Assembly (NCBI GenBank): GCA_025453445.1 | Contig: JALOQJ010000005.1 | Span: 136 to 64,135, forward strand | Length of the DNA: 64,000 nucleotides | Reading direction: 5' to 3' | Source: Candidatus Omnitrophota bacterium | GTDB lineage: Bacteria; Omnitrophota; Gorgyraeia; Gygaellales; Profunditerraquicolaceae | In this document: positions 5,717-50,739 of the stretch, one piece after another | How the letters are laid out: every line of letters begins with the position of its first letter | Numbering within the stretch: position 1 is the first letter of the stretch | Position numbers and translations under genes: made by a program | The notes under the pieces: model-generated | What the model saw: only the letters and a program-made list of their open reading frames with translations | What the model was told of the DNA's origin: nothing | The model's database searches: none

Positions 5717-6967
5717 ATGCTTTGGTCAAAAACTTTTATTCCCACTTTAAAAGAGACGCCTCAGGAAGCAGAATCAATAAGCCATCAGTTAATGCTCAAG
5801 GCTGGGCTGGTGCGCATGCTGATGGCAGGGGTTTATTCTTATTTGCCGTTGGGCCTGCGTGTTCTGAATAATATCGAAAAAATAATCCGTGCGGAGATGG
5901 AAGCAGCGGGTGCTGCGGAATTATTACTGCCTGCTCTGCAACCGAAAGAATTATGGGTTAAGTCCGGCCGCGATACGGTAATTGCCGATGTGATGATTGA
6001 GTTTATTGATCGCCGCGGTAGGCATATCTGCCTCGGGCCCACGCATGAAGAAGTAATTACTGAATTGGTTAAATCCTATGTTTCCAGCTATCGGCAGCTG
6101 CCTATGGTGCTATACCAAATTCAGGCTAAATTCCGCGATGAAATCAGGCCGCGTTTTGGCCTGGTGCGTTCCTGCGAATTTATTATGAAGGACGCCTATA
6201 GTTTTGATAAAGACCAGCAGGGGCTGGATAAAAATTATCAGGCAATGCATCAGGCATACAAAAGGATATTTAGCAGGTGTGGTTTAGATTTTTTAACCGT
6301 AGCTGCAGATTCCGGAGTAATGGGCGGCAGTGTTTCGCATGAATTTATGGTTGGGGCATCTGACGGTGAAGATATTGTCCTGCTTTGCCCGCAATGCAAA
6401 CAGGCAAAGCCGTTCAAAGATGAAACTAAATTGACTTGCCCGGAATGCGGAATTATCCTGCAAAAAACTAACACCCTGGAAGTCGGCCACATTTTTCAGC
6501 TGGGCACGAAATACAGCGCCGCATTAGGAGCGAATTTTGTTGATGATAAAGGTAAGCAGCAGCCTGTTATTATGGGTTGTTACGGCATAGGCGTTTCGCG
6601 CCTGATTGCCGCGATTATCGAGCAGAACCATGATAAAGACGGAATTATCTGGCCTGCAGAAATCAGCCCTTATCAGGTAAGTATTATTGCGCTTGATGTT
6701 ACGGATGAATTAATTTTTAAGAAAGCACTGGAAATATATGAAAAACTTAAAGCTGAAGGTATAGAAGTCCTGCTTGATGACCGTGATGAACGCGCAGGGG
6801 TGAAATTTAAAGACGCGGATTTACTCGGTATTAGCACGCAGATTGTTATCGGCAGGGAATTCTCGAAAACCGGCGCTATCGAGCTGAAGATGCGCCGTGA
6901 TAATAATAAAATTACAGGTAAAGCCGAAGAAATTTTAGGGAAATTAAAGGAAGTTTTGCATGGATAA
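5717..6967 (+). CDS. proS: Prolyl-tRNA synthetase, bacterial type but without the INS editing domain; a Zn-ribbon mini-insert replaces it
   Basis: The N-terminus is MLWSKTFIPTLKETPQEAESISHQLML. Class II motifs and a C-terminal anticodon-binding domain are present. The protein is only 416 aa, and CPQCKQ...CPECG sits where the INS domain normally lies. Confidence 0.9.
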   Translation: MLWSKTFIPTLKETPQEAESISHQLMLKAGLVRMLMAGVYSYLPLGLRVLNNIEKIIRAEMEAAGAAELLLPALQPKELWVKSGRDTVIADVMIEFIDRRGRHICLGPTHEEVITELVKSYVSSYRQLPMVLYQIQAKFRDEIRPRFGLVRSCEFIMKDAYSFDKDQQGLDKNYQAMHQAYKRIFSRCGLDFLTVAADSGVMGGSVSHEFMVGASDGEDIVLLCPQCKQAKPFKDETKLTCPECGIILQKTNTLEVGHIFQLGTKYSAALGANFVDDKGKQQPVIMGCYGIGVSRLIAAIIEQNHDKDGIIWPAEISPYQVSIIALDVTDELIFKKALEIYEKLKAEGIEVLLDDRDERAGVKFKDADLLGISTQIVIGREFSKTGAIELKMRRDNNKITGKAEEILGKLKEVLHG

Positions 6968-7424
6968 GGATGCAATTGTTGAGCAGTTAAAAGAAATAGT
7001 CGGCGTTTATTTGCAAAGCCAGGGCGTTGAATTGGTAGATTTAATTTACCGCCGTGAAGGCAGGAATTTAATTTTAGAGATATTGGCTGATTTGCCGGAG
7101 GGCGGAATTACTATAGGTGAATGCACCCGGCTGAATCGAGAAATCAGTGTGATTTTAGACGAAAGAAATATCCTGGATGAAAGTTATCTCCTGGGAGTTT
7201 CCTCTCCCGGTTTAGACAGGCCATTAACTGCTAAAAATGATTTTTTAAGATGCAGGGGCAAAGTTGCAAAATTTTTCCTCAAAGAAATTGTTAACGGAAA
7301 AGTGGAATGGGATGGCATAATTAAAAGGGTAGAAAATGACATGGTTTTTATTGACACAGAGGGAATGATTTTAGAAATTCCCCTTTTAAAGATAAACAGA
7401 GCAAAACAATTGCTTGATGTTTAG
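6960..7424 (+). CDS. rimP: Ribosome maturation factor RimP
   Basis: It lies immediately upstream of nusA-infB in the conserved rimP-nusA-infB arrangement, and size and sequence are typical of RimP. Confidence 0.85.
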   Translation: MDKDAIVEQLKEIVGVYLQSQGVELVDLIYRREGRNLILEILADLPEGGITIGECTRLNREISVILDERNILDESYLLGVSSPGLDRPLTAKNDFLRCRGKVAKFFLKEIVNGKVEWDGIIKRVENDMVFIDTEGMILEIPLLKINRAKQLLDV

Positions 7425-8693: not shown

Positions 8694-10886
8694 ATGGTAA
8701 CAAAGCCTAAAAAAATAAAACCTAAAGTTAAAAAAATTTCAGCGGTAAAGCACAAGCCGGAAGCAAAAAAAGCTGTTCCTAGGGCCAGCCGGCCCAAGCC
8801 AACAGCTAAGCCCCAGGTTAAGCCTAAGCTGGAAAAAATAATAAAGTCAACGAAGCCAAAAGTTATGCCTGTTGTTAAGCCGCAGGTTAAACCGGAAATT
8901 AAAGTTGCAGTGAAGCCTGAAGTGAAGGTTGCATTAAAACAGGAAGTGAAGCATGTAGTAAGGCCGGAAGTTAAACCTGAACTGAAGCCGGTAGTTAAAC
9001 CGGTAATAAAACCAGAAGTAAAGCCGGAAATAAAATCAGAGCATAAACCGGAAATAAAGCCTGTAATTAAGCCGGAAATTAAACCGGAGATCAAGCAGGA
9101 ATTTAAGCAGCAGGTTAAAGAGACGGCACATTTAAAAGAATTGGTATTAAAATTTCCGGTTATTGTAAAAGACCTTGCCATAAAGCTTCAGGAGAAACCA
9201 TCGATATTAATCAAAATGCTCATGGATATGCGCATTATGGCAGGGATTAATCAGGCATTAGATGAGGAAGCAGCAGCAAAGATCTGTGAAAAATTCGGTT
9301 TTAAAATCATACCAGCGCCCGGTGAAGAAGAATTGGCATTACGTGTGCATCAGGAAGCGGATAAGCCGCAGTCTCTAAAAGCGCGGCCGCCGATAGTTAC
9401 TTTTATGGGCCACGTTGATCATGGAAAGACTTCGCTTCTGGATGCGGTAAGAAAAACCAAAGTTGCTGAGTCAGAACACGGCGGGATTACTCAGCATATC
9501 GGCGCCTACCGCGTGCATCTTCCCCACGGGGATATTACATTTTTAGATACGCCGGGGCATGAGGCGTTTACTGCTATGCGTGCGAGAGGAGCGAAGATTA
9601 CCGATATCGTAGTTTTGGTTGTTGCCGCGGACGATGGGATCATGCCTCAGACTAAAGAAGCAATTGATCATGCGCGCGCCGCCGGTGTTTCTATTATTGT
9701 TGCTGTAAACAAAATCGATAAGCCGCAGGCAGATCTTGACCGGGTAAAAAAACAACTTTCAGAAATGGATCTTTTAGCTGAAGATTGGGGTGGTAAAACC
9801 ATTACTGTCCCGGTTTCTGCTAAGACCGGTGCGGGTATAGATAATTTGCTGGAAATGATTATTCTGGAATCTCAGATGCTGGAATTAAAAGCCAATCCGG
9901 ATCGTGCAGCCAGGGGTGTTGTGGTAGAAGCAAAGATGTCTAAGGGGAAGGGGCCGGTGGCTACTCTATTAGTGCAGAATGGCACATTGCATTTAAATGA
10001 GTTTATTATCGTAGGCAATTTCCTTGGCAGGGTGCGCGCGATGTTTAATCATCTTGGCCAGGCTGTAGCTGAAGCAGGCCCGGCTTATCCGGTGGAGGCA
10101 TTGGGTTTGTCGGGAGTTCCTGATGCAGGCGAGCAATTTTTTGTGATTAGCGATGAGAAACAGGCAAAGGAAATAATTGCTTTGCGCCAAGAGCAGGAAA
10201 AACAGGCTCAGGTCAAGCAGGTTAAGCGTATCAATCTTGAAGAATTACATGCGCAGATTAAAGAAGGGAAAATCAAGGATCTGAAGCTGATTATTAAGGC
10301 AGATGTGCAGGGTTCTTTGGCGGCAATCAAAGATACGCTCGACAAAACCAATACTTCGGAAATTAAGTTAGATATTATCCATGAAGGCGTGGGTAATATT
10401 AATTCGTCGGATGTAATCCTGGCAGTTGCCTCTAACGCCCTGATTTTAGGTTTTAATGTAGTACAGGATGATTTAGCTAAAGTAATATCGGCAAAAGAAG
10501 GCGTGGATGTGCGCGTCTACAATATTATTTATGAATTAGCTAATGATATTAAAGCGGCAATTGAAGGCATGCTTGAGCCAAAAATTAAGAAAGTATTCCT
10601 GGGGAGAGTAGATATAAGGCAGGTTTTTAAGCTTTCTCGTTCAGGCATGGTAGCCGGCTGCTTTGTGAGTAAAGGTAAGATTACCCGGCAGGCGGTAATT
10701 AACCTGGTGCGTAACGGCGAGCTGATTTTTGAAGGTAAAATCAGTAACCTGAAACGTTTTAAAGATGATGTAAAAGAAGTGGCTGAGGGTTTTGAATGCG
10801 GGATTACTCTTAGCGGTTTTGACAGTATGCAGGCAGGCGATGTTATTGAGGCATATGATATAGAGAAAGTGGCGCGTAAGCTATGA
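8694..10886 (+). CDS. infB: Translation initiation factor IF-2 with a repetitive KP-rich N-terminal region
   Basis: G-domain motifs [20 protein letters not shown] and NKIDK. The N-terminus carries tandem [10 protein letters not shown]-type repeats. Confidence 0.95.
8874..9114 (+). repeat. In-frame tandem repeats inside infB, encoding (V/I)KPE(V/I)KP units
   Basis: The motif gttaaaccggaa / gtgaagcctgaa recurs with a 15-18-nt period. This is low-complexity coding sequence in the IF2 N-domain. Confidence 0.7.
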
Positions 10887-12645: not shown

Positions 12646-13678
12646 TACAGATCCGCTTAAAACCGCAAGCCCGGGGCAGGAGACTGAAGAGGATGTAGTA
12701 TTGAATATTTCTCTACGGCCGCAGAAGTTCACTGAATTTACCGGCCAAAAAGAAATTATTGATAACCTCAAAATCTGCCTTGCCGCAGCAAAAGAAAGAA
12801 AAGAGCCTTTAGAGCATATATTGCTTTCCGGGCCTCCGGGTTTGGGCAAGACTTCTTTATCACATATTATCGCCCATGAAATGGGCACAAAAATTACCGC
12901 TACCTCTGGCCCTGCGATTGAACGCGCCGGAGATTTAATCGGGATTCTTACTAATTTAGAAAAAGGCGATATCCTCTTTATTGATGAAATCCACCGGCTT
13001 TCCAAAGTGGTGGAAGAATTTTTGTACCCGGCAATGGAAGGTTTTCAGATTGATTTTGTCATTGATAAAGGCCAGTTTGCCCGGACAATTAAGTTCAACC
13101 TTAAGCCTTTTACTTTAATTGGTGCTACTACCCGCACCGGCCTCTTAGCTGCGCCGTTAAGGGCGAGGTTTGGTATTTTCCACCATCTGGATTTTTATAA
13201 AATAGAAGACCTGGCTGTAATTATTAAGCATTCCGCGAAAATTTTAGGTGTCGAGATAGATAACGAAGCTGCAGATGAAGTGGCCCGGCGTAGCCGCGGC
13301 ACGCCCCGCATTGCCAATCGGCTTTTACGCAGGATCCGGGATTATGCGCAGGTAAAGAAAATCGGCAAAATCAATCTAACAGTTGCTTCAGAAACGCTGG
13401 ATGAATTAGGTATTGATAAAGCAGGCCTCGATGATATAGACCGGCGGGTATTAAAAACAATTTTGCAAAATTACAGCGGCGGGCCGGTAGGCGTGGAGTC
13501 TCTGGCTGCTACTTTAAACGAAGAAACTGATACTATCGTGGATACAGTTGAGCCTTTTTTATTAAAAGCAGGCTATATTAAGCGCACTTCCCGCGGCAGG
13601 CTGGCTACCAAATTATCCTTCGAGCATTTCGGGTTAAAATACAATAAAGAGAAGCAGGAAGAGTTGTTTGAGAAGTAG
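12599..13678 (+). CDS. ruvB: Holliday junction ATP-dependent DNA helicase RuvB
   Basis: LRP...F..F.GQ N-terminal motif, Walker A GPPGLGKTSL, sensor and arginine-finger regions. No ruvA is adjacent, and the true start may lie downstream of the long overlap with scpA. Confidence 0.9.
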   Translation: MTNEGRLKLLKGRSNNTDPLKTASPGQETEEDVVLNISLRPQKFTEFTGQKEIIDNLKICLAAAKERKEPLEHILLSGPPGLGKTSLSHIIAHEMGTKITATSGPAIERAGDLIGILTNLEKGDILFIDEIHRLSKVVEEFLYPAMEGFQIDFVIDKGQFARTIKFNLKPFTLIGATTRTGLLAAPLRARFGIFHHLDFYKIEDLAVIIKHSAKILGVEIDNEAADEVARRSRGTPRIANRLLRRIRDYAQVKKIGKINLTVASETLDELGIDKAGLDDIDRRVLKTILQNYSGGPVGVESLAATLNEETDTIVDTVEPFLLKAGYIKRTSRGRLATKLSFEHFGLKYNKEKQEELFEK

Positions 13679-13699
13679 TTTCGCGTCTGCCTTGTCCAG

Positions 13700-13800
13700 T
13701 TTCTCGCTCATTGATATTGAGCGGGTCCTGTCTGCCGATCCACCTCGCCGTCCTCGCTATTCGCTGCGGGCGGCAAGGTCTTCGTCTCGGCAGTCACCCG
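13700..13800 (+). repeat. Diverged, truncated family-2-like GC-rich element
   Basis: It shares gagcgggtcctgtc, cctcgccgtcctcgct and cagtcacccgcaag with the 270-nt family-2 repeats at 21484 and 22851, in the same orientation. Confidence 0.4.
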
Positions 13801-13805
13801 CAAGC

Positions 13806-13837
13806 AATGAATTCGCTCGAAATCCGTCATATTCATT
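13806..13837. repeat. Mini-hairpin whose arms reproduce the family-1 terminal inverted repeats (aatgaattcg...catattcatt)
   Basis: AATGAAT and ATTCATT arms flank a 12-nt spacer and are near-identical to the AATGAATCTG / CAGATTCATT ends of the 237-nt element. Confidence 0.5.
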
Positions 13838-13879
13838 TAAAGCTTATATTAGCGGTTGGCTTGGCTGGGATTTCGAGTA

Positions 13880-13919
13880 CCACAGAGTAGCTGACGTTTA
13901 AACGTCAGCTACTCTGTGG
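13880..13919. repeat. 40-bp perfect palindrome (ccacagagtagctgacgttt|aaacgtcagctactctgtgg)
   Basis: Read directly from the sequence. The two 20-nt arms are perfect reverse complements with no loop. Confidence 0.95.
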
Positions 13920-13937
13920 ATAACTTTCAAGATTCCG

Positions 13938-13961
13938 CAAAAACACAGTCAAGACCCACGC
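13938..13961 (+). repeat. 21-nt motif copy (caaaaacacagtcaagacccacgc)
   Basis: It matches AAAACACAGACAAGACACACG with 2 mismatches, and the same motif recurs at 14228, 21500(rc), 22866(rc) and 23945. Confidence 0.8.
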
Positions 13962-13976
13962 TATGATAGGTTTTTA

Positions 13977-14213
13977 AATGAATCTGGCGCGTTTTCGAGC
14001 GAATGTTGATTTTAGGCAAAGCATGCTCGAGTATTTTTGGGAATTCCGATGCCCCGCGAATGCGGGGCAATATCGGAACGGCGATGCTGTTTGAGGACAT
14101 TTTGCGTATAGCGCAAAATGGCCGAGTTCAGCAGCCGCCAAAAATACGAGAGACCTTTGCCGGCCCCGAAGGGGCAAAATCGACTTTGAGCGAGAAAATG
14201 CGGCAGATTCATT
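13977..14213 (+). repeat. Family-1 GC-rich structured element, copy 1 (candidate ncRNA or MITE-like element)
   Basis: It is bounded by a 10-bp inverted repeat, AATGAATCTG...CAGATTCATT, that extends to a roughly 19-bp closing helix. Internal hairpins are ccccgc-gaat-gcgggg, cattttgcg-tata-cgcaaaatg and gccccgaaggggc. It is GC-rich against an AT-rich background. The second copy is at 23709. Confidence 0.8.
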
Positions 14214-14227
14214 AAGAGATACTTTAG

Positions 14228-14251
14228 AAAACACAGACAAGACACACGCGG
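14228..14251 (+). repeat. 21-nt motif copy (aaaacacagacaagacacacgcgg)
   Basis: Consensus copy, located 14 nt after the family-1 element and 15 nt before the queH start. Confidence 0.8.
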
Positions 14252-20102: not shown

Positions 20103-20663
20103 ATGTATAAAGAAGCTACTTTAAAAAAATACCTTGATGATTTGGCGGCTAAATTGCCTGCTCCCGGAGGCGGATCAGCTGCAGCAATGAATGCGGCAAT
20201 GGGTGTGGCTTTAGTGAGCATGGTGGTGAATTTTACTTTAGGTAAGCCAAAATACGCCCAATATGACACAGAGTTAAAGCATATCCTTAAAAGGGCGGAA
20301 GATCTTAGGAAAGAATTCTTACATTTAGTAGATTTAGATGTTACGGCGTACAAAAGTAAAAATATGCGCGATGCTTTGAATGTACCGTTTATGCTTGCCC
20401 GGCTCAGCTTTGAGGCAATAAAATTATGCCCTGTCTTGATTAAAAAAGGCAATATTAATTTGATTAGCGATGTGGTAGTAGCGGCGATTTTCTTAGAGTC
20501 AGCTTTTACCAGTGCCTATTGTAATGTGGATATAAACTTAAAAATTTTAGATGATAAAAAGCTTGCTTCTGTCATTAGGAAAGAATTAAGCGCGAAAGAA
20601 AAAAGAATCAAAAAAATCAGAAAACTCGTGGAGGAGAAAGTTGGCAAAATTATTAGAGGGTAA
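20103..20663 (+). CDS. Cyclodeaminase/cyclohydrolase family protein (FTCD C-terminal domain; methenyl-THF cyclohydrolase-like)
   Basis: The LPAPGGGSAAAMNAAMGVALVSMVVNFTLGK motif is characteristic of the FTCD_C / FchA family. Confidence 0.7.
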   Translation: MYKEATLKKYLDDLAAKLPAPGGGSAAAMNAAMGVALVSMVVNFTLGKPKYAQYDTELKHILKRAEDLRKEFLHLVDLDVTAYKSKNMRDALNVPFMLARLSFEAIKLCPVLIKKGNINLISDVVVAAIFLESAFTSAYCNVDINLKILDDKKLASVIRKELSAKEKRIKKIRKLVEEKVGKIIRG

Positions 20664-21483
20664 ACCGCTTGCGGAAAAAATTAAAGAAGAGATAAAAGCA
20701 CAAATTCAGGCATTGGGGATTAAGCCTGTTTTGGCTAGTGTTTTAGTAGGCGAGAATGCCGGTGCTGAAGCCTATGTCAAATCACAAAGCAAAGCCGCAG
20801 AAAATTTAGGGATTGTTTATCAATTTCATAAGCTTGATGCAGCTACAACGGAAGTTGCCTTAATTGAATTTATCAAGAAACTAAATAGCGATAAAAATGT
20901 TAACGGCATTATTATTCAGATGCCGCTTCCAGCGCAAATAGATTATAAAAAAATCTCTCAATTTATTTCTGCGGAAAAAGATGTTGAAGGCATGCATCCG
21001 GCAAATATAGGTAAAATAGTATTCGGTAAGGCGAAGATTCTACCCTGTACGCCGGCGGCAGTAATGGAGCTTTTAAATAGCACGGGCGTTGATTTATACG
21101 GTAAAGAGGTAGTGATTGTCGGCCATAGCGAAATTGTAGGCAAGCCTTTAGCGCTTTTGTTGCTTGAAAAATTTGCTACTGTTACAGTAGCTCATATCGG
21201 TACCAGCAAAGCTGGCAAATTAGAAGAGCATATTAAGAAAGCTGAAGTATTAATTGTGGCAGTGGGTAAGGCGGGGTTAATCAAAGGTGATTTAGTTAAA
21301 GAAGGCGCAATTGTCATTGATGTTGGGATCAATAGGGTGGATGGTAAGATTGTCGGCGATGTGGAGTTTGAAGCGGCAGAGAAGAAAGCAAGCTACATTA
21401 CACCTGTTCCCGGCGGTGTCGGTCCACTGACTGTAACTATGTTAATGCGTAATTTAGTCGAAGCTGCGAAATTACAAAAATAA
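20641..21483 (+). CDS. folD: Bifunctional methylene-THF dehydrogenase / methenyl-THF cyclohydrolase
   Basis: Length is 280 aa. The FolD motifs VGxxxxSxxYxxxK, PGGVGP and TVTxxH-like are present. Confidence 0.95.
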   Translation: MAKLLEGKPLAEKIKEEIKAQIQALGIKPVLASVLVGENAGAEAYVKSQSKAAENLGIVYQFHKLDAATTEVALIEFIKKLNSDKNVNGIIIQMPLPAQIDYKKISQFISAEKDVEGMHPANIGKIVFGKAKILPCTPAAVMELLNSTGVDLYGKEVVIVGHSEIVGKPLALLLLEKFATVTVAHIGTSKAGKLEEHIKKAEVLIVAVGKAGLIKGDLVKEGAIVIDVGINRVDGKIVGDVEFEAAEKKASYITPVPGGVGPLTVTMLMRNLVEAAKLQK

Positions 21484-21753
21484 GTTCTTTGGATTTTTTC
21501 CGTGTGTCTTGTCTGTGTTTTTTCGGGTAGTTTACGAGGGGGCGGGTCCTGTCGAGGCATATTTCTTGCAGGAACGCACGATTTTCCCCGGCGTGGAAAA
21601 TCGCGCTCGGCTCCTCGGCCTCGCTCGTCCCAGACAAGATTAGTGCGGGGGACACCGTGCCCGCTCGGCCTGCGGACGTCCTGCTCGAATCGCGCCTCGT
21701 CAATCCGCTTCGACAGGATAGAAGTCGCGCTCAAAACCGGCCAAGTCACCCGC
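21484..21753 (+). repeat. Family-2 GC-rich structured element, copy A
   Basis: Roughly 95% identical to 22851..23120. It starts immediately after the folD stop codon. Its left end carries the reverse complement of the 21-nt motif at 21500-21521. It contains the hairpin cgattttcc-acgccgg-ggaaaatcg. Confidence 0.85.
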
Positions 21754-21769
21754 TAAGACTGGTTTAAAT

Positions 21770-22345
21770 ATGAAAAATAAAAATGTCTATATAATCGCAG
21801 GGCCGAATGGATCGGGTAAGACAACCTTTGCAAGGATGTTTTTGCCTGATTATGTAAGTTGCCCAAATTTTGTAAATGCCGATCTTATTGCTCAAGGGCT
21901 GGCTCCTTTTGAGCCGCGCAGCGCGGCGATTAAAGCGGGTAAACTTGTTTTGCAGCAAATTCATGAATTTGCCGGGCGTAATGTTGATTTTTCTTTTGAA
22001 ACAACTCTATCCGGTAAATCTTACGCGAATTTACTAAGTGAATTAAAACTAAAAGGCTATGCAGTATATCTTTTTTTTCTTTGGATTCCCAATACGGAGT
22101 TAGCAATAGCCCGAATTAAAGACAGAGTTAAGGAAGGCGGACATAATGTACCGGCTGAAGATGTTAGGCGGCGTTTCCGTCGTGGTCTCAATAATTTTTT
22201 CAAATTATATGAGCCGTTGCTTGATTCGTGGATGCTGTTTGATAATTCTCAGGCTAAGCCGGTCTTGATAGCAAAAAGGCGTAATGGCCACATGGAAATA
22301 ATAAATGAAAAATTATTTGAAGCAATTCAGGAATCTTTGAGGTGA
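21770..22345 (+). CDS. Zeta-toxin/AAA_33-like P-loop kinase (COG4185-like), candidate toxin
   Basis: MKNKNVYIIAGPNGSGKTTFARMF Walker A near the N-terminus and a roughly 190-aa zeta-like fold. Confidence 0.7.
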   Translation: MKNKNVYIIAGPNGSGKTTFARMFLPDYVSCPNFVNADLIAQGLAPFEPRSAAIKAGKLVLQQIHEFAGRNVDFSFETTLSGKSYANLLSELKLKGYAVYLFFLWIPNTELAIARIKDRVKEGGHNVPAEDVRRRFRRGLNNFFKLYEPLLDSWMLFDNSQAKPVLIAKRRNGHMEIINEKLFEAIQESLR

Positions 22346-22348
22346 TGT

Positions 22349-22501
22349 ATGAAAAAAAGAATGTCCGTAGAAGATAAGGCTGAAGCAGCGCTGAAGGCAG
22401 CGGTAAGAAAAGTTGTAGAAGAGCATAAGAAGACCGGCCGGCCTTTAGCAATATGGGAGAATGGTAGGGTTATGCAAATTTCTCCGTATAAGATAAAGTA
22501 G
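22349..22501 (+). CDS. Small basic 50-aa protein (MKKRMSVEDKAEAALKAAVRKVVEEHKKTGRPLAIWENGRVMQISPYKIK), candidate partner or antitoxin
   Basis: Not in the ORF table because it is under 60 aa. A GAGGTGA RBS lies 5 nt upstream, and the ATG is 4 nt after the kinase stop. Confidence 0.45.
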   Translation: MKKRMSVEDKAEAALKAAVRKVVEEHKKTGRPLAIWENGRVMQISPYKIK

Positions 22502-22519
22502 GTGTTAAGTTATAGATAG

Positions 22520-22849
22520 ATGAAAACAATTGTTCTTTTGACTATATCAAATGTGTTTATGACTTTTGCCTGGTATGGGCATCTGAAGTTTAAAAATTCG
22601 CCGCTCTGGATTGTAGTTTTAATCAGCTGGGGCATTGCTTTTGCCGAGTATTGTTTTCAGGTGCCGGCAAACCGTATCGGCTCTTATAAATTTAGCGCGG
22701 CACAGTTAAAGACAATTCAGGAAATAATTACTCTTGTAGTATTTGCAGTATTTTCTGTGCTCTATCTTAAAGAAGAATTCAAATGGAATTATGCTGTAGG
22801 TTTCTTGTGTATCTTACTAGCGGTGTTTTTTATATTTAAGAAGTGGTAG
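22520..22849 (+). CDS. DUF486/DMT-superfamily small membrane protein
   Basis: 109 aa with four predicted TM helices and a pattern resembling DUF486. Confidence 0.6.
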   Translation: MKTIVLLTISNVFMTFAWYGHLKFKNSPLWIVVLISWGIAFAEYCFQVPANRIGSYKFSAAQLKTIQEIITLVVFAVFSVLYLKEEFKWNYAVGFLCILLAVFFIFKKW

Positions 22850-22850
22850 A

Positions 22851-23120
22851 GTTCTTTGGATTTTTTCCGTGTGTCTTGTCTGTGTTTTTGCGGGTAGTTT
22901 ACGAATGGGCGGGTCCTGTCGAGGCATATTTCTCGCAGGAACGCACGATTTTCCCCGGCGTGGAAAATCGCGCTCGGCTCCTCGGCCTCGCTCGTCCTCT
23001 AAAGTTTATTTAGGGAGGACACCGTGCCCGCTCGGCCTGCGGACGTCCTGCTCGAATCGCGCCTCGTCAACCCGCTTCGACAGGATAGAAGCCGCGCTCA
23101 AAACCGGCCAAGCCACCCGC
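22851..23120 (+). repeat. Family-2 GC-rich structured element, copy B
   Basis: Near-identical to copy A except for an 18-nt equal-length substitution block (cagacaagattagtgcgg versus tctaaagtttatttaggg). It starts 1 nt after the stop of the upstream gene and carries the motif reverse complement at 22866-22887. Confidence 0.85.
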
Positions 23121-23184
23121 GAGAAATGAACTATTTTAGATAAGTACTCAACCAAAATAGCAAATTTGATCAAAGAGGGATAAA

Positions 23185-23688
23185 ATGGAAATCGAAGTTA
23201 TTAAGATAATCGTTTATCCGGTATTAGTTACTTTTCTTACGATAACGATAGCTAAATTTCATTTTGAAAAAGATAGAAAAGTAGAATATCTTAGGGCTAA
23301 AGATAAAGTAGCGATAGATTTAATAAGGTGTCTTTGTAATATGCTTACTCACATGTGGGAAATGGTGAATATCGATCGCTGGGTGGCTAATGGTAATTCT
23401 AATCCAGATCTTCCTCAGAAACGACTACAAGCTAGAAATAATTTTTACCAATCTAGGAATGATACTACTATCTTATTAGGACTTATGGGGTTGTATTACG
23501 GTACTAAAATAGTGGATAGGATATCCCAGCTTATATCTGATTTAAACGATATGGTGAATAGTAATAATTTTTCCGCTTTTGATAAGTGGGATAATTTTAG
23601 AAGAAAAAAGTTGTTACCCATTCTAAATAAAGTTCATAAGGAATTAAAGTATACCGTATTTGATAGACCGTTTTGGGATTTAGGTTAG
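23185..23688 (+). CDS. Hypothetical membrane-anchored protein, very AT-rich gene
   Basis: N-terminal TM helix (IIVYPVLVTFLTITIA). Codon usage is far more AT-rich than in neighbouring genes. Confidence 0.5.
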   Translation: MEIEVIKIIVYPVLVTFLTITIAKFHFEKDRKVEYLRAKDKVAIDLIRCLCNMLTHMWEMVNIDRWVANGNSNPDLPQKRLQARNNFYQSRNDTTILLGLMGLYYGTKIVDRISQLISDLNDMVNSNNFSAFDKWDNFRRKKLLPILNKVHKELKYTVFDRPFWDLG

Positions 23689-23708
23689 AGTAGTTTTGGT
23701 GTTTGATA

Positions 23709-23937
23709 AATGAATCTGGAGCGTTTTCGAGCGAATGTCGATTTTAGGCAAAGCATGCTCGAGTATTTTTGGAAATTCCGATGCCCCGCGAATGCGGGGC
23801 AATATCGGAACGGCGATGCTGTTCGAGGAGCATTTGCTAGAGCAAATGCGACGAGTTCAGCAGCCGCCAAAAATACGAGAGACCTTTGCCGGCCCGCCGA
23901 AGGCGAGGCAAAATCGACTCTGAGCGAGAAAACCGAC
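23709..23937 (+). repeat. Family-1 GC-rich structured element, copy 2
   Basis: It has the same AATGAATCTG...CAGATTCATT ends and the same hairpins as copy 1, with compensatory changes: gcatttgc-taga-gcaaatgc, and cgcc-gaa-ggcg. Confidence 0.8.
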
Positions 23938-23944
23938 AGATTCA

Positions 23945-23968
23945 TTAAAGCGTAAATACACAGACAAG
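23945..23968 (+). repeat. 21-nt motif copy (aaatacacagacaagacaaacgcg)
   Basis: Located 7 nt after family-1 copy 2 and 29 nt before the metF TTG start. Confidence 0.75.
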
Positions 23969-23996
23969 ACAAACGCGAAACAGTAAGGAGTGAAAA

Positions 23997-24866
23997 TTGA
24001 ATTTTAAAGAGAAGATACAGACTGGGAAATTTGTGGTGACGTCCGAGATTGGCCCGCCTAAGGGGGTTGAGACAAAGACTCTTTTGGAGGATGCGGAATT
24101 AATTAGGGGCAAGGTTGATGGGATTAATGTTACTGATTTACAAAGCTCAGTAATGCGCTTAGGTTCACTTGCTGTTTGCGCCTTGTTGAAACAAGGTGGC
24201 TTTGAGCCGATATTCCAGTTAACTTGCCGTGATAGGAATCGCCTTGCTTTACAGTCAGATGTTTTATCAGCTGCAGCACTCGGGATTGAAAATCTCTTAC
24301 TTCTTACTGGCGATCATCCGGCAATGGGCGATCACCCGGAAGCAAAGCCGGTTTTTGACCTTGATTCAGTGCAATTATTGCAGGTAGTAAAGAAGCTGCA
24401 GGAAGGCGCTGACATGAAGGGTAATAAATTAATTGGCGAGCCGCCGAAATTCTGCATGGGCGCTGTGGTTAATCCCGGAGCAGACCCATTGGAGCCGCAA
24501 ATAATAAAGATGGAGAAAAAAATTGCTGCTGGTGCGGAATTTTTCCAGACACAGGCAGTTTATGACATAAAAACTTTCGAGAACTTTTTAAATAAAACCA
24601 AGCATTTAAAAACTACGGTTATGGCAGGTATAGTTTTATTAAAATCCGCAGGTATGGCGCGCTACATGAATAAGAATGTCGCCGGAGTATTTGTGCCGGA
24701 TAATTTAATCAAGGAGATGGAAGAGACAAAAGACAAACAAGCTAAGTCTGTGGAAATTGCTGCGCGCTTAATCAAAGAATTAAAGCCAATGTGTCAGGGG
24801 ATTCATATTATGCCTATCGGCTGGGATAAGGTTGTACCGAGAGTTTTAGAGGCAGGTGGATTATAA
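23997..24866 (+). CDS. metF: Methylenetetrahydrofolate reductase (MetF-like)
   Basis: TTG start with an AAGGAG RBS. VTSEIGPPKG and the TIM-barrel MTHFR pattern are present. Confidence 0.8.
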   Translation: MNFKEKIQTGKFVVTSEIGPPKGVETKTLLEDAELIRGKVDGINVTDLQSSVMRLGSLAVCALLKQGGFEPIFQLTCRDRNRLALQSDVLSAAALGIENLLLLTGDHPAMGDHPEAKPVFDLDSVQLLQVVKKLQEGADMKGNKLIGEPPKFCMGAVVNPGADPLEPQIIKMEKKIAAGAEFFQTQAVYDIKTFENFLNKTKHLKTTVMAGIVLLKSAGMARYMNKNVAGVFVPDNLIKEMEETKDKQAKSVEIAARLIKELKPMCQGIHIMPIGWDKVVPRVLEAGGL

Positions 24867-24868
24867 CA

Positions 24869-27454
24869 ATGGGTAATTTGCCTCAGATCCCGGGTGCCAA
24901 GAAAAAAGGCGTAATATTAATTGATACTAAGGATGACTTAAGTAAATTAGAAGGCCAGCTCATTTTTGATACTGTCTGTATCGATGGACCGGAACAATTT
25001 TCTTTTAATTTAGCCAAGTCTCTGAAAGAAAAGTATAAAGTCGGGGTTAAGGTTGTAACTAAGGATGCTTTTACCGGCGAGTTACCCGGCGATATCGAGG
25101 CAATAAATAGCCCGATACAGGAAATCGTCGGTGAGGGCAAAGCAGAAGCAGTAAAATTTAAAAACGGAAAAGCTGTTGGTATAAGTCTGGTTTTATTTAT
25201 TAATCAGGAATTGACGACTGGCGCGGATCAAAATTGCGCCAGTGTTGCCTCTGTAGGCAAAGGAGATAATATGTCAGATGTCCTTATTCAATTAGGCACC
25301 AAAGGAAGCGAAGCAGTATTAAATCTCACCCGTGGCGCGCTGGAAAAAGCAATTAAAGAAAAAGGCACCGGGCAAGCAGTTAGTTTTCCCGAGACAAATT
25401 ATTTTTTCCCTCTGATTAATGCTTTATTAAAAATTGAAGTAAAAAATCTAGGCGACTGCCTTGAAGTTTTAAAGCAAGCCGAGGGTTTAAATAAAAATCA
25501 GGCAGCTGTTAATGGTTTTAATTTAGCTGCCCTAGGTGGAATATTAAATAAAGGTATTGCAACTTTGCTTTGTGAAGAAATACTAGCGGTTTTGGCCTGT
25601 GCTGATAAAACACATCCTCAAGAGGGTTATGCTGGATTTCTTTCCGATACTTTATTGCGGTCGTTGGGTATCCAGCTGGTCGATGGCAGAATCGCCGGGA
25701 TTGCTGTAATTTTAGGCCCGGCAAAAGATGAAGATGCAGCAGTGCAATTGGTAAGGGATTTTCAGAGCAGGAGTATTGTCAGCCTGCTGGTGGGTAATGT
25801 TGCTGGCAATACTTTTAAAAAGCAGCTGGAAAATAAAAAAATCGAGATGGGCCTTGAGAATTATATCGTGCCTTTAGGCGAAGATTACCTCTCGGCGATT
25901 TATGCGGCAAACTGGGCAGTGAGAGCGCCGTTAATGTACGGCGGGCTGAAGAGCGGCCAATGGCAGAATATTTTAAATTATACCAAAGACAAAGTTCCGG
26001 CATTCATCGTGTTGCTAACTCACGTTGATGAAGTAATTGTGGCCACTGGTTTGGGCGTATTAGCCATGGGTTTCCCGATTATTACTGATTTAGAAGTGCC
26101 TCAGTTGGGAAAAATCGATACTACTTTGTATGAAGCATTGGTTACGGAAAAAGATTACAAAAAATTAGCCGGTAAATGTATTGAAGTAAGGGGCCTGAAA
26201 GTCAAAATTGCCCAGATTCCTGTGCCTGTGCCCTATGCTGCGGCATTTGAAGGAGAACGGGTAAGGCGGGAAAATTTACATATCGAATTCGGCGGTAAAG
26301 CAAGCCAGGCATTTGAGTTTCTCACCACTAAGCAATTAAATGAAATTGAAGACGGCAAAGTGGAATTAATCGGCCCGGATATCGACCAGCTTGAGCAGGG
26401 CAGCAGGTCTATGCCTTTGGCAATTATTGTAGAAGTTGCCGGACGTAAAATGCAGAAAGATTTTGAGCCGATTTTGGAACGCCAGATTCACCGTTTTACA
26501 AATTATGCCATGGGCCTGATGCATGTAGGACAACGCGATATGAACTGGATCAGGATTTCCAAAGACGCTTTTAATAAAGGCTTCCGGATTAAGCATATAG
26601 GGGTAATTCTGCATGCTATGTTACATCAGGAATATAGTGCCATAGTTGATAAGGTACAGGTAAAGCTTTACACAAAACAAGCTGACGTAGAAAAATTATT
26701 GCCGCAAGCAATGAAATCCTATGCTGAACGCGATGAGCGTTTAAGCGGAATGACTGATGAAAGTGTGGATACTTTTTATTCCTGCCTTTTATGCCAGAGT
26801 TTCGCTCCGAACCATATTTGTATGATTACGCCTGAGCGCTTGGGTTTGTGCGGCGCTTATTCATGGCTTGATGGTAAAGCATCGTATGAAATTATGCCTA
26901 CCGGGCCGAATCAGCCGGTTGCTAAAGGTGTAGCAATCGACAAAAATAAAGGCGAGTGGAAAAATATCAATGATTTTGTTTTTGCCAAATCTAATAAAAC
27001 TATCGAGAAAGTAAATATGTATTCGTTGATGGATGCGCCGCAATCATCATGCGGTTGTTTTGAATGCATTGTGGCAATCATCCCGGAAGCAAACGGGGTA
27101 ATGGTTGTGCATCGTGATTATTCAGGGATGACACCCAGCGGTATGACTTTTACTACACTTGCCGGATCAGTCGGCGGAGGAGTGCAGACTCCGGGATTTT
27201 TAGGCGTGGGGAAACTTTATATTGCCAGTAAGAAATTTATCTCTGCAGAAGGCGGTTTAAAAAGGCTGGTCTGGATGCCTAAAGAATTAAAGGAGTTATT
27301 AGGGGATAAGCTTACAAAACGCGCAGAAGAGCTGGGTGTGCCGGACTTGCTTGAGAAAATTGCCGATGAAACCAAGGCTAATACTTCCGAAGAGCTGTTA
27401 AATTTTCTGCAGCAGGTAAAGCATCCGGCTTTAGAGATGGAGCCTTTAATTTAA
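24869..27454 (+). CDS. acsB: Acetyl-CoA synthase catalytic subunit (AcsB/CdhC-like) with a roughly 130-150-aa N-terminal extension
   Basis: A-cluster region motifs CLLCQSFAPNHICMITPERLGLCGA, SCGCFEC, VWMPKELK and a C-terminal KIADET...HPALEMEPLI. The C-terminal two-thirds aligns well with acetogen AcsB as I remember it. Confidence 0.85.
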   Translation: MGNLPQIPGAKKKGVILIDTKDDLSKLEGQLIFDTVCIDGPEQFSFNLAKSLKEKYKVGVKVVTKDAFTGELPGDIEAINSPIQEIVGEGKAEAVKFKNGKAVGISLVLFINQELTTGADQNCASVASVGKGDNMSDVLIQLGTKGSEAVLNLTRGALEKAIKEKGTGQAVSFPETNYFFPLINALLKIEVKNLGDCLEVLKQAEGLNKNQAAVNGFNLAALGGILNKGIATLLCEEILAVLACADKTHPQEGYAGFLSDTLLRSLGIQLVDGRIAGIAVILGPAKDEDAAVQLVRDFQSRSIVSLLVGNVAGNTFKKQLENKKIEMGLENYIVPLGEDYLSAIYAANWAVRAPLMYGGLKSGQWQNILNYTKDKVPAFIVLLTHVDEVIVATGLGVLAMGFPIITDLEVPQLGKIDTTLYEALVTEKDYKKLAGKCIEVRGLKVKIAQIPVPVPYAAAFEGERVRRENLHIEFGGKASQAFEFLTTKQLNEIEDGKVELIGPDIDQLEQGSRSMPLAIIVEVAGRKMQKDFEPILERQIHRFTNYAMGLMHVGQRDMNWIRISKDAFNKGFRIKHIGVILHAMLHQEYSAIVDKVQVKLYTKQADVEKLLPQAMKSYAERDERLSGMTDESVDTFYSCLLCQSFAPNHICMITPERLGLCGAYSWLDGKASYEIMPTGPNQPVAKGVAIDKNKGEWKNINDFVFAKSNKTIEKVNMYSLMDAPQSSCGCFECIVAIIPEANGVMVVHRDYSGMTPSGMTFTTLAGSVGGGVQTPGFLGVGKLYIASKKFISAEGGLKRLVWMPKELKELLGDKLTKRAEELGVPDLLEKIADETKANTSEELLNFLQQVKHPALEMEPLI

Positions 27455-49414: not shown

Positions 49415-49545
49415 TTCATTTGAAGTATACTTGAAAATTCAGCCTTGTCAAATAATTAAATAAGAAAATCCTTGCTCTAATCCTCAATCAGGAGGTATAC
49501 TATAAGCACAAAATTTAAAGCGCAAAAATAATCAGGAGGTATAGA

Positions 49546-50739
49546 ATGCCTAAAACCTTAAAAGTCATCAGTATTGTTCTTTTCTTCTTTAGCCTGCTTC
49601 CCATTGTTTCTTCCCAAGCCCAAACCACTGACTCCATCCGTATTATTACCTACTATCCCTCACCCTACGGCAGTTACCGTGAACTAAGGACTAAAAGGCT
49701 GGCCATTGGTGATGATTATATTAAAACTGGCGTTCCTCCTGATAAATACGACTGGCAGGAATATGCCACTGATCCAATGCATAATATTGGTTATAATACA
49801 GACTTGGTAGTCCAAGGCAATGTGGGGATTGGGACAACGATGCCGGAATCCAATTTGGATATTGTTCAGGAAAATGGATTCCCGGTTATTTATTTAGATG
49901 GTTATGGGACAAGATCAGGAACAGTTAATTACGCCCCCCATTTTATTGGAAGGACTGCGCGTGGTACAGCAGCTTCTCCGCAAGCGACTCAATTAGGTGA
50001 TGGTTTGCTTGTTTTGCGTGGACTAGGCTATGGTTCAGGTGGATGGGTTGGCGGAAACTCCGGCTCCGGCCAGATAATAGTTTATGCAGATGGAGACTTT
50101 ACTAGTACTTCGTCTCCGGGAAAAATTATATTTTACACTACCCCTATAGATAGTACTATTAGTTCCGAGAGGATGATTATTAGTTCATCCGGCAACGTCG
50201 GCATCGGGACGACCAGTCCGCAAACGCCTGCGCCTGGAGGCGGCACTACCGGGAATTTAGATGTTAATGATGTTTATTTAAGAAGCACCGGTAAGTGGGC
50301 AAGCCAAGGTGGTGGAGGCGTTGTGCAGATGGTTTCTACTAACTATACGGGAACTATGGATAGCGCGGGTATTCCTTGGGATAATACAATTCCACTTTAT
50401 AGCGAAGGTAGCGAAATACTTACTTATGTCTTTACCCCGAAATATCCAGACAGTATGATTAGGATTGATGTTGTTGTTTCTGGTGATGAGATAGGCCAGA
50501 CTACCGCAATAGTGGCTTTGTTTAACGGTACGACCTGTGTGGATGCCGTTGCCAGTTATGGCCATGATTCACCACACGATTATAATTTGCTTTATACGGA
50601 ATCATCCGGCAGCACAAGCGCCAGGACATATTCAGTACGCGTGGGTAATATGCGGGTTAATTCTTCCAATGATATAGCTAACCCTCCTTTAGGTGGAAAG
50701 TATATTTCCAAAATGATTATTACAGAAATCCGCACCTGA
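49546..50739 (+). CDS. Secreted protein with tail-fibre-like GNVGIGTT(x)P repeats
   Basis: Signal peptide, two GNVGIGTT motifs, and a Gly/Ser/Thr-rich stretch. Confidence 0.6.
   Translation: MPKTLKVISIVLFFFSLLPIVSSQAQTTDSIRIITYYPSPYGSYRELRTKRLAIGDDYIKTGVPPDKYDWQEYATDPMHNIGYNTDLVVQGNVGIGTTMPESNLDIVQENGFPVIYLDGYGTRSGTVNYAPHFIGRTARGTAASPQATQLGDGLLVLRGLGYGSGGWVGGNSGSGQIIVYADGDFTSTSSPGKIIFYTTPIDSTISSERMIISSSGNVGIGTTSPQTPAPGGGTTGNLDVNDVYLRSTGKWASQGGGGVVQMVSTNYTGTMDSAGIPWDNTIPLYSEGSEILTYVFTPKYPDSMIRIDVVVSGDEIGQTTAIVALFNGTTCVDAVASYGHDSPHDYNLLYTESSGSTSARTYSVRVGNMRVNSSNDIANPPLGGKYISKMIITEIRT

Follow-up and report, generated by a model that had tools for sequence, protein, structure and literature searches.

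This study concerns a structured element, here called Fam1, that occurs twice in a 64,000-nt stretch of DNA (the window) from a Candidatus Omnitrophota bacterium (GenBank assembly GCA_025453445.1, contig JALOQJ010000005.1, positions 136 to 64,135 of the forward strand). The first copy lies between ruvB and queH, ending 52 nt before queH, and the second ends 50 nt before metF; these downstream genes and distances had been given correctly by a sequence-only reading of the window, which proposed a candidate structured RNA or cis-regulatory element. We found that Fam1 is indeed conserved, structured and noncoding and matches no Rfam family, whereas a role in regulating queH or metF did not hold up. 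We file Fam1 as a structured, interspersed intergenic repeat, previously undescribed and without a sequence relative. The two copies, and the parts of copy 1 with helices numbered from P1 and minimum free energies (MFE) of the RNA, are listed here.

13977..14213, + strand: Fam1 copy 1, complete, 237 nt (nhmmer E = 1.5e-63; MFE -126 kcal/mol)
23709..23946, + strand: Fam1 copy 2, complete, 238 nt (nhmmer E = 1.7e-65; MFE -122.4 kcal/mol)
13977..13996, + strand: 5' arm of P1 in copy 1, pairing with 14194-14213; P1 sequence varies even within one metagenome-assembled genome (MAG)
13997..14004, + strand: conserved GAGCGAAU, between P1 and P2 and opposite UGAGCGAGAA (14187-14196); nearly invariant
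14005..14040, + strand: 5' strand of the rod, P2-P5, pairing with 14138-14184; 97-99% of alignment cells paired
14044..14078, + strand: side arm P6 (hairpin 1 of the sequence-only reading), whose base covaries (helix 5: 4 of 6 pairs change on both sides)
14079..14137, + strand: side arm P8/P7, with invariant CGGC/GCCG, a GCAGC internal loop and a variable hairpin at 14098-14120 (hairpin 2)
14138..14184, + strand: 3' strand of the rod, P5-P2, broken by the side hairpin at 14163-14175
14163..14175, + strand: side hairpin P3a (hairpin 3), with a C(GAA)G loop; highly variable and missing from some copies
14187..14196, + strand: conserved UGAGCGAGAA, partner of 13997-14004
14194..14213, + strand: 3' arm of P1 in copy 1, pairing with 13977-13996

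Both copies of the one element were recovered where they had been reported, except that copy 2 had been ended at 23937, which is where the terminal CAGATTCATT starts; its true end is 23946. The inverted ends AATGAATCTG...CAGATTCATT are present, and their exact occurrences in the window are these four places only. The closing helix of about 19 bp with one G-U pair also exists, as 10 bp, a G/G mismatch and 9 bp, the G-U being in copy 1. Overall, each copy folds into a long rod with this 19-bp closing helix and three side hairpins. The + strand of copy 1, folded as RNA, reached -126 kcal/mol against -72.8 +/- 4.8 kcal/mol for dinucleotide shuffles (z = -11.2), and copy 2 gave z = -10.5 against its shuffles. 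The main differences between the two copies are at the tips of two side arms. Three hairpins had been described as preserved by changes on both arms: hairpins 2 and 3 do show symmetric changes that keep the pairing, whereas hairpin 1 is the same in both copies and provides no compensation within the window. The description of GC-rich elements against an AT-rich background was overstated and is only mildly true (about 50% G+C in the elements, 42% in the window).

The family extends well outside the window. A 23-nt core pattern, GCAGCCGCCRAAAATRCGARAGA, matched 42 stretches in a collection of species-representative genomes, nearly all of them Candidatus Omnitrophota MAGs, commonly with 2-4 copies per MAG. 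Contigs bearing four database look-alikes of an open reading frame (ORF) that crosses copy 2 carry clear Fam1 copies, and the homologues of the window's QueH are annotated as Omnitrophota. In all, more than 55 copies beyond the two of the window were recovered, nearly every one from Candidatus Omnitrophota MAGs and metagenomes. A profile search of all fetched DNA gave 64 Fam1 matches, 56 of them essentially full length, and the copies are about 225-280 nt long. Viral contigs scanned with the 23-nt pattern gave no match, nor did plasmids and phages searched by blastn with the element. Rfam 15, for which the earlier reading had asked a comparison, had no match to the whole window at gathering thresholds, and searching the elements up to E = 10 returned chance-level matches only (E = 1.7-5.4). 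In the literature on Omnitrophota repeats or noncoding RNAs (ncRNAs) we found no prior description of Fam1.

Identity was 0.74 within MAGs, 0.63 between MAGs and 0.57-0.77 for orthologous copies. Copies inside one genome are 52-93% identical. Arm types are common to copies of the same genome, which, together with the greater likeness of copies within a MAG, amounts to concerted evolution. The numbered loci (L) also held some unusual arrangements. Two Fam1 copies stand back to back at L009 (2448-2949), divergent, 44 nt apart and 52% identical to each other. A Fam1 copy at L023 (about 6450-7000) is flanked on both sides by a direct repeat of 67 nt with 98.5% identity; the distances from the two ends, 64-130 nt and about 110-175 nt, show that this is not a target-site duplication. 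An IS481-like (helix-turn-helix plus rve) transposase gene sits inside Fam1 at L040 (730-1936), where only model positions 112-242 remain.

Covariation, which the sequence-only reading had predicted, appeared massively once 44 copies were aligned. In this alignment (A3), made with MAFFT blind to structure, the fold of copy 1 was projected and the pairs were counted. A total of 86.4% of the cells paired, compared with 38-43% when partners were slid by 1-3 columns. Changes on both sides occurred in 50 of 90 pairs (345 cells), and none of 500 shuffles reached any observed measure. RNAalifold, run independently on A3, recovered P1-P6 with 30 covarying pairs. In the rod, GGCAAAG/CTTTGCC is replaced by GCCAGAG/CTCTGGC, GCCAATG/CATTGGC or GCCGGAG/CTCCGGC, and TATTTTTGG/CCAAAAATA likewise becomes CATTTTCGG/CCGAAAATG. 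The P1 clamp is the most variable part (AATGAATCTG, AATGCCCCTG, AACGGAGCTG, AATAGACATGG and AAGAAAATTTATGG, among others, with variation within one MAG); 18 of its 21 pairs change on both sides, and it pairs in every copy, over 15-25 bp. The P6 tip occurs as discrete types that differ between genomes, and the loop of the P8/P7 hairpin is usually C-UAGA-G in other copies.

The junctions (TTCGAGCGAATG, GGGAAT, ACGGCG, GCAGCCGCC and TGAGCGAGAA) are nearly invariant. Two GAGCGA stretches are opposed as G.A, A.G, G-C, C-G, G.A, A.G; columns 31/309 and 32/308 are paired in all but one of the 44 copies, and the tandem G.A device is repeated in P4/P5 and at the base of P7. Across the family, the + strand thus forms a rod of about 235 nt that ends in a P1 clamp of 19-25 bp, gains stiffness from the tandem G.A pairs and bears three side arms. 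Our results demonstrated that the fold is under selection and that its core is under purifying selection.

The two strands are not equivalent. With RNA parameters, 43 of 44 copies folded better as the + strand than as the complement (mean -117.6 vs. -103.2 kcal/mol); with DNA parameters, all 44 did. Among the non-Watson-Crick cells of A3, G.A/A.G outnumbered C.T/T.C (253 vs. 51), and hairpins of the + strand end in GNRA tetraloops, C(GNA)G triloops or the conserved C-UAGA-G. What is selected thus appears to be the + strand, as a single strand. The chemical nature of that strand is less easily read. Both C(GNA)G triloops and GCGAAGC mini-hairpins are classic examples of hairpins that are stable in DNA. 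Wobble pairs are rare in Fam1 (1-3%), and with triloops of this DNA-stable type present, sequence alone cannot separate RNA from single-stranded DNA.

Fam1 is often accompanied by a second repeat family, Fam2, which is Omnitrophota-wide and very abundant, with at least 120 loci in one metagenome pattern scan. The window holds two Fam2 copies, 96% identical and of about 62% G+C, together with the following associated features.

13679..13976, + strand: rearranged Fam2/Fam1 debris, between ruvB and Fam1 copy 1
14231..14248, + strand: 18-nt motif ACACAGACAAGACACACG, 17 nt after Fam1 copy 1
21484..21759, + strand: Fam2 copy 1, after the folD stop and before a zeta-toxin-like kinase gene
21501..21518, - strand: inverted occurrence of the 18-nt motif ACACAGACAAGACACACG within the 5' leader of Fam2 copy 1, with a counterpart at 22868-22885 in Fam2 copy 2
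21770..22849, + strand: cargo between the Fam2 copies, comprising a zeta-toxin-like P-loop kinase (21770-22345), a small ORF and a DUF486 membrane protein (22520-22849)
22851..23126, + strand: Fam2 copy 2, upstream of ORF167 and of Fam1 copy 2, on the same strand
23185..23688, + strand: cargo ORF of 167 aa (ORF167), flanked by Fam2 copy 2 and Fam1 copy 2 and without a family match
23958..23975, + strand: the 18-nt motif ACACAGACAAGACACACG with 1 mismatch, 11 nt after Fam1 copy 2

Wherever Fam1 and Fam2 lay within about 2.5 kb of each other, Fam2 was upstream and on the same strand (24 of 24), either directly adjacent or with genes between. The 3' end of Fam2 was no more than 90 nt upstream of Fam1 in 17 of 56 copies, and Fam2 itself is mostly solo. 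Local hairpins of Fam2 covary between genomes; the window's Fam2 copies folded no better than shuffles, and the consensus fold from a MAFFT alignment was only partial. The two families also share short inverted motifs, in that GCGAGAAA, within the UGAGCGAGAA region of Fam1, is the reverse complement of TTTCTCGC of the Fam2 5' region. The 18-nt motif ACACAGACAAGACACACG is the leader of the window's Fam2 copies in reverse complement, and it is also a variant form of the Fam2 terminus. As a universal outer inverted repeat it was rejected; the motif or the complement of the canonical Fam2 terminus follows Fam1 in only 7 of 56 copies.

The genes between Fam2 and Fam1 vary by genome, even at the same chromosomal site. 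In a relative with 85% QueH identity (the 85% relative), the position of ORF167 is taken by a different ORF of 136 aa, and the 21770-22849 cargo is absent from the folD-metF spacer. Elsewhere the cargo includes an AbiJ-like PDC-S32 protein (L033), AbiLi and AbiLii (L045), a nucleotidyltransferase/HEPN-like pair recognized by sequence inspection (L029), and unknown proteins (L026 and L006). Convergent Fam2 pairs bracket 0-2 kb in ten loci, with SIR2-like, DUF5677 and unknown proteins and also argH and queA. The Fam2-Fam1 interval is a hot spot for differing accessory genes, which are often anti-phage. In the window, it is the folD-metF interval that has taken up these repeats and accessory genes. 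The surrounding region (20641-27454) is a Wood-Ljungdahl-type run with an FTCD_C/fchA-like gene, folD, the repeat cassettes, metF and an 861-aa carbon monoxide dehydrogenase/acetyl-CoA synthase protein, which is CdhC-like by the Pfam marks of the 85% relative.

One further locus, L075 (800-3450), has a gene for a Y1 transposase like the REP-associated tyrosine transposases (RAYT; REP, repetitive extragenic palindromic) and a SIR2-like gene between inverted Fam2 copies. These genes are ringed by classical short REP hairpins, GTAGGGACAG...CTGTCCCTAC and GTAGGGGCGGG...CCCGCCCCTAC, and the same REP abuts a Fam2 end in L113. A link between RAYT and Fam1 was rejected; the Y1_Tnp gene of L075 has its own REPs, and tblastn found the gene in no other locus.

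Fam1 copies persist over long periods. Orthologous copies were recognized by their flanks in the sets L018/L014/L016, L004/L021, L032/L024 and L026/L033/L029/L037. At the purine-nucleoside-phosphorylase/Amidohydro_2 locus, 8 genomes with proteins only 65-73% identical were compared, and 7 of them carry Fam1 right against the 3' end of the amidohydrolase gene; it is inverted in one, L008, and missing from one, L002. The mean identity of the Fam1 core at this locus is 78% (80-88% without L008), while the gene has a mean nucleotide identity of 70%. A core more conserved than the neighbouring enzyme gene suggests that something reads Fam1.

Inversion in place is seen in L015 and L039, which carry Fam1 in opposite orientation between the same flanks, in L008, and between the window and L168. 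The ruvB-queH spacer is 588 nt in the window and 434 nt in L168 (85% QueH identity), and it is only 20 and 68 nt, without the element, in L170 and L172 (relatives with 73% and 69% QueH identity). The L168 spacer has one full Fam2 and one short Fam2 variant, the latter in the opposite orientation to that in the window; of Fam1 it has the 3' arm alone, followed by the same right flank; the junction lies at TTTCTCGC, the reverse complement of Fam1 GCGAGAAA. The corresponding debris of the window holds a Fam2 5' start with the short Fam2 variant (about 13721-13802), inverted with respect to the 85% relative, and a motif like the Fam2 3' end (13943-13960). Between ruvB and Fam1 copy 1 there is also a perfect 18-bp inverted repeat, CCACAGAGTAGCTGACGT TTAA ACGTCAGCTACTCTGTGG (13880-13919), which the 85% relative lacks. 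Upstream of metF, the 85% relative keeps the P1 arms and the flank, with the Fam1 interior replaced by an inverted short Fam2 variant, and its 3' arm there is that of the window's queH copy. Taken together, Fam1 is kept in the long term, homogenized within genomes, gained at new intergenic sites and inverted in place, and its modules are swapped.

We also considered the P1 arms as a general frame for differing interiors. A census gave 2 such cases (L174 and L107) vs. 40 standard copies, so that the phenomenon is real and rare. Both cases share the clamp-arm type of Fam1 and its GAGCGA junctions; inside, L174 (16146-16306) has an inverted short Fam2 variant and L107 (7679-7911) an unclassified stretch of about 230 nt.

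The position of Fam1 relative to genes was investigated in 49 copies. The flanking genes were unrelated and both orientations occurred: 18 copies were antisense to the genes on either side and 13 were in sense to them, and in many copies the ends fall -11 to +10 nt from the stop codon of a neighbour. The earlier suggestion of cis-regulation of queH and metF thus finds no support. A gene-specific leader or riboswitch is ruled out, since neither the orientation nor the gene family of the neighbour is constant and queH has relatives without the element; Fam1 is not a regulator specific to queH or metF. Nor does Fam1 look like an intrinsic bidirectional terminator, as there is no U-run of at least 5 and a scan found no terminator at P1. 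The + strand lay on the strand of negative local GC skew in 32 of 44 cases (p = 0.004).

Based on the fold, the persistence and the association with Fam2, we hypothesized that Fam1 is a module of a mosaic Fam2+Fam1 intergenic repeat system, which works as a single strand, probably RNA, and supplies homology for cassette exchange. We give this hypothesis about an even chance of being correct. According to it, the fold would act as a single strand of + polarity, most likely RNA. With P1 lying against stop codons, it would place a long double-stranded clamp at gene boundaries, and this clamp could serve as a transcript-end signal or as a processing or stability signal. The invariant junctions could form a putative protein-binding platform. 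As DNA, the conserved multi-copy repeats may provide portable homology, together with the short inverted motifs TTTCTCGC/GCGAGAAA, and so drive the replacement and inversion of cassettes.

Several observations weigh against this hypothesis. The raw alignment has no excess of G.U over A.C (77 vs. 68). This count was alignment noise, since aligning the P1 arms copy by copy shifts it to 38 vs. 16, and the well-aligned P2-P5 give 13 vs. 3; the excess of G.U so obtained favours the + polarity of the fold. Moreover, about 60% of the Fam1 copies have no Fam2 remnant within 90 nt, so that bracketing of cassettes cannot explain everything. In about 60-70% of cases, the strand that folds better runs antisense to the neighbours and is the one of negative GC skew, and read-through mRNAs would therefore usually carry the weaker complementary fold. 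Scans of both window copies for sigma-70-like promoters and canonical terminators detected none, although these scans are uninformative, and no conserved sequence was found upstream of solo copies. The U-run after P1 (CAUUU/CAUUA) is short, with 2-4 U. Finally, no enzyme inserting or inverting Fam1 was identified in the loci examined.

The first alternative is that Fam1 is a free-standing family of structured ncRNA genes, with several paralogues per genome, each under its own promoter. Their RNAs would act in trans, perhaps as ligands that bind or sequester some conserved protein of Omnitrophota, and what looks like the behaviour of a repeat would then be only gene-family dynamics. Covarying stems and invariant junctions are the signature of a functional RNA, the GNRA loops and tandem G.A pairs stand on the one strand that folds better in 43 of 44 copies, and G.U exceeds A.C after arm-wise alignment. 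The position is also deeply conserved, with a core more conserved than the adjoining coding gene, and independence from the orientation of neighbours would fit a self-contained gene. However, no conserved promoter or terminator was found, and the ends overlap or abut stop codons, leaving no room for such signals. The element is lost, gained, truncated, made chimeric and inverted between close relatives, and its strict positional coupling to Fam2 and variable cargo is not expected of a trans-acting RNA. We regard this alternative as possible but doubtful.

A second alternative assigns the folds to single-stranded DNA. Fam2 and Fam1 would be recombination structures, either the left and right ends of a non-autonomous mobile cassette that an HUH/Y1-type or other recombinase moves in trans or, within a cassette-exchange system, sites resembling integron attC. 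The fixed order and strand of Fam2, cargo and Fam1 (24 of 24), the differing cargo at one chromosomal site across genomes, and the Fam2-cargo-Fam2-cargo-Fam1 array of the window, with similar arrays in L052, are all in its favour. So are the complement of the Fam2 5' terminus after Fam1 in 7 of 56 copies, the inversion junction at shared short inverted motifs, the DNA-stable C(GNA)G triloops, the preference for the + strand with DNA parameters too and the great rarity of wobble pairs. Nevertheless, no recombinase is consistently nearby. The sole Y1 transposase, that of L075, has its own short REPs, and the other transposases, namely rve in L040 and an IS256 fragment in L108, come from insertion sequences that are unrelated. 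About 60% of Fam1 and most Fam2 copies are solo, some of the cargo is housekeeping (e.g., argH and queA), and neither integron R-box motifs (by inspection) nor consistent target-site duplications were found. IS608-type elements use the lagging-strand template. The GC-skew bias of Fam1 points the wrong way for such an element, with the + strand on the negative-skew strand in 32 of 44 cases. We consider the DNA alternative unlikely.

An ordinary miniature inverted-repeat transposable element (MITE), that is, an insertion sequence shortened by deletion and mobilized by a transposase recognizing its terminal inverted repeats, is very improbable. Fam1 does have terminal inverted repeats of 19-25 bp, is multi-copy and intergenic and shows presence/absence polymorphism, and the public assembly contig of the window breaks at it. 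But its termini are the least conserved part and differ within a genome while the interior core is the most conserved, which is the reverse of what a transposase-bound element would show. Within one genome, copies share no more than 52-93% identity; at orthologous sites, they persist though the flanking gene is only about 70% identical, and none of about 170 loci (whole genomes lay outside the search) held a transposase-bearing relative with the same ends. There is no consistent target-site duplication; many of the helices run into A/T-rich flanks, with no clean empty site for comparison. The sequence-only reading had named duplications without covariation as the mark of a MITE and an Rfam match as the mark of a known RNA; what we found is covariation, no consistent duplication and no Rfam match.

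A small protein, encoded by the 81-codon ORF of copy 2 (start codon, the ATG of AATGAATCTG) that four database proteins match, has practically no chance of being the explanation and is refuted by frame-breaking variation (ORF translations, Pfam and one large protein search), as copy 1 has an in-frame stop in the same frame, the ORF has no Pfam match, the four homologues keep only patches in shifted frames, and hairpin lengths among copies differ by non-multiples of three. The earlier view that selection acts on structure and not on coding is borne out by these broken frames. In public gene calls, hypothetical proteins of 66-93 aa are placed on Fam1 or Fam2 (L168 3556-3837, window 13668-13901, and P0001-P0004). 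Such calls are almost certainly spurious ORFs caused by the repeats.

Among known systems, the behaviour of Fam1 seems closest to that of palindromic repeats of the REPIN (REP doublet), BIME (bacterial interspersed mosaic element) and ERIC (enterobacterial repetitive intergenic consensus) types, although Fam1 is larger and far more elaborately folded. BIMEs are mosaic combinations of modules in fixed orders, and Fam1/Fam2 modules are likewise mosaic with a fixed order. Like REPINs and BIMEs, which are extragenic palindromes with long hairpins, Fam1 lies at gene ends in either orientation. ERIC sequences (intergenic repeat units, IRU) are imperfect palindromes of enterobacteria that lie in transcribed intergenic regions in either orientation, with sequence conserved throughout a broad taxon and a low copy number. 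They form a simple hairpin of 127 bp, and some copies are orthologous and some variants have internal insertions; they are not known to have a function. Fam1 differs from ERIC in having no sequence similarity and another host phylum, and also in its side arms, its tandem G.A pairs and its linkage to a second family and variable cargo.

REPINs or REP-BIMEs with RAYT are reported to form populations of diverged copies in each genome, with mostly vertical inheritance and long persistence (Bertels & Rainey 2011, PMC3116915; bioRxiv 10.1101/2021.07.10.451892). Fam1 resembles REP/REPIN populations in being extragenic, palindromic and vertically persistent. In contrast, it is 230-260 nt long, while a REPIN has about 70-110 nt, and its fold is a branched one with three arms, invariant junctions and free termini, not a simple doublet hairpin. 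Nor does Fam1 have short REP doublets (units of about 20-40 nt) or a flanked RAYT.

The resemblance to attC sites is one of logic only. In attC, structure and not sequence is kept in the paired arms, a central stretch is non-complementary and the terminal structure is variable. These sites are homogeneous within a genome and bound promoterless accessory or defence cassettes. Fam1/Fam2 likewise bracket variable, often anti-phage, genes. However, by inspection there are no RYYYAAC/GTTRRRY boxes, the ends of Fam1 being AAATGAATCTG/CAGATTCATTT, and Fam1 has 225-280 nt compared with 57-141 bp, about twice the attC maximum. Most Fam1 copies are solo, with cargo in both orientations, and no integrase was seen in the loci inspected, an inspection that was not exhaustive. 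IS200/IS605-type ends (LE/RE, PATE) are distinct left and right ends with hairpins in a fixed order, without terminal inverted repeats or target-site duplications, served by a Y1 transposase and with the active strand on the lagging-strand template. Compared with these, Fam1 gives a mixed picture: the order of Fam2 and Fam1 is fixed (24 of 24) and no consistent target-site duplication was seen, but there is no associated Y1 transposase and the + strand is on the negative-skew strand (32 of 44). Large structured ncRNA candidates that came from comparative genomics, such as raiA, HEARO, ROOL and OLE, are of the same size class; like Fam1 they covary strongly, have GNRA loops and conserved junctions and are restricted to one lineage. 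Fam1 differs from them in having several copies per genome in both orientations, insertion polymorphism, module swapping and no defined transcription signals.

A bolder proposal is that Fam2/Fam1 are the boundaries of a new cassette-exchange system of Omnitrophota, or that Fam1 alone is a new class of large ncRNA with a protein partner. We think it improbable that either is the case. If the cassette-exchange version were true, folded single-strand sites of DNA or RNA would be read by a lineage-specific enzyme and defence or toxin genes would be swapped at fixed positions, making a system functionally parallel to integron attC and structurally unrelated to it.

Omnitrophota are uncultured, very small and possibly host-dependent, and to our knowledge almost nothing is known of their genome biology. 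Fam1 is a repeat family of many Omnitrophota genomes, which is mis-annotated as small ORFs and breaks assemblies. Its pairing with Fam2 around variable anti-phage genes points to a way of exchanging defence genes. Moreover, as a three-arm rod in which tandem G.A pairs recur, it supplies clean covariation data for structural or biochemical work, and it can serve as a marker for Omnitrophota contigs.

Other repeats were noted in the window. At 8854-9119, units of 12 and 24 nt (AAGCCGGAAATTAAA-like) are repeated in tandem and in frame, and they would encode a repeat rich in lysine, proline, glutamate and valine inside an ORF. At 49486-49564, two copies of AATCAGGAGGTATA... stand 44 nt apart as a repeat resembling a ribosome-binding site, and this region is the only place in the window where the GC skew turns negative.

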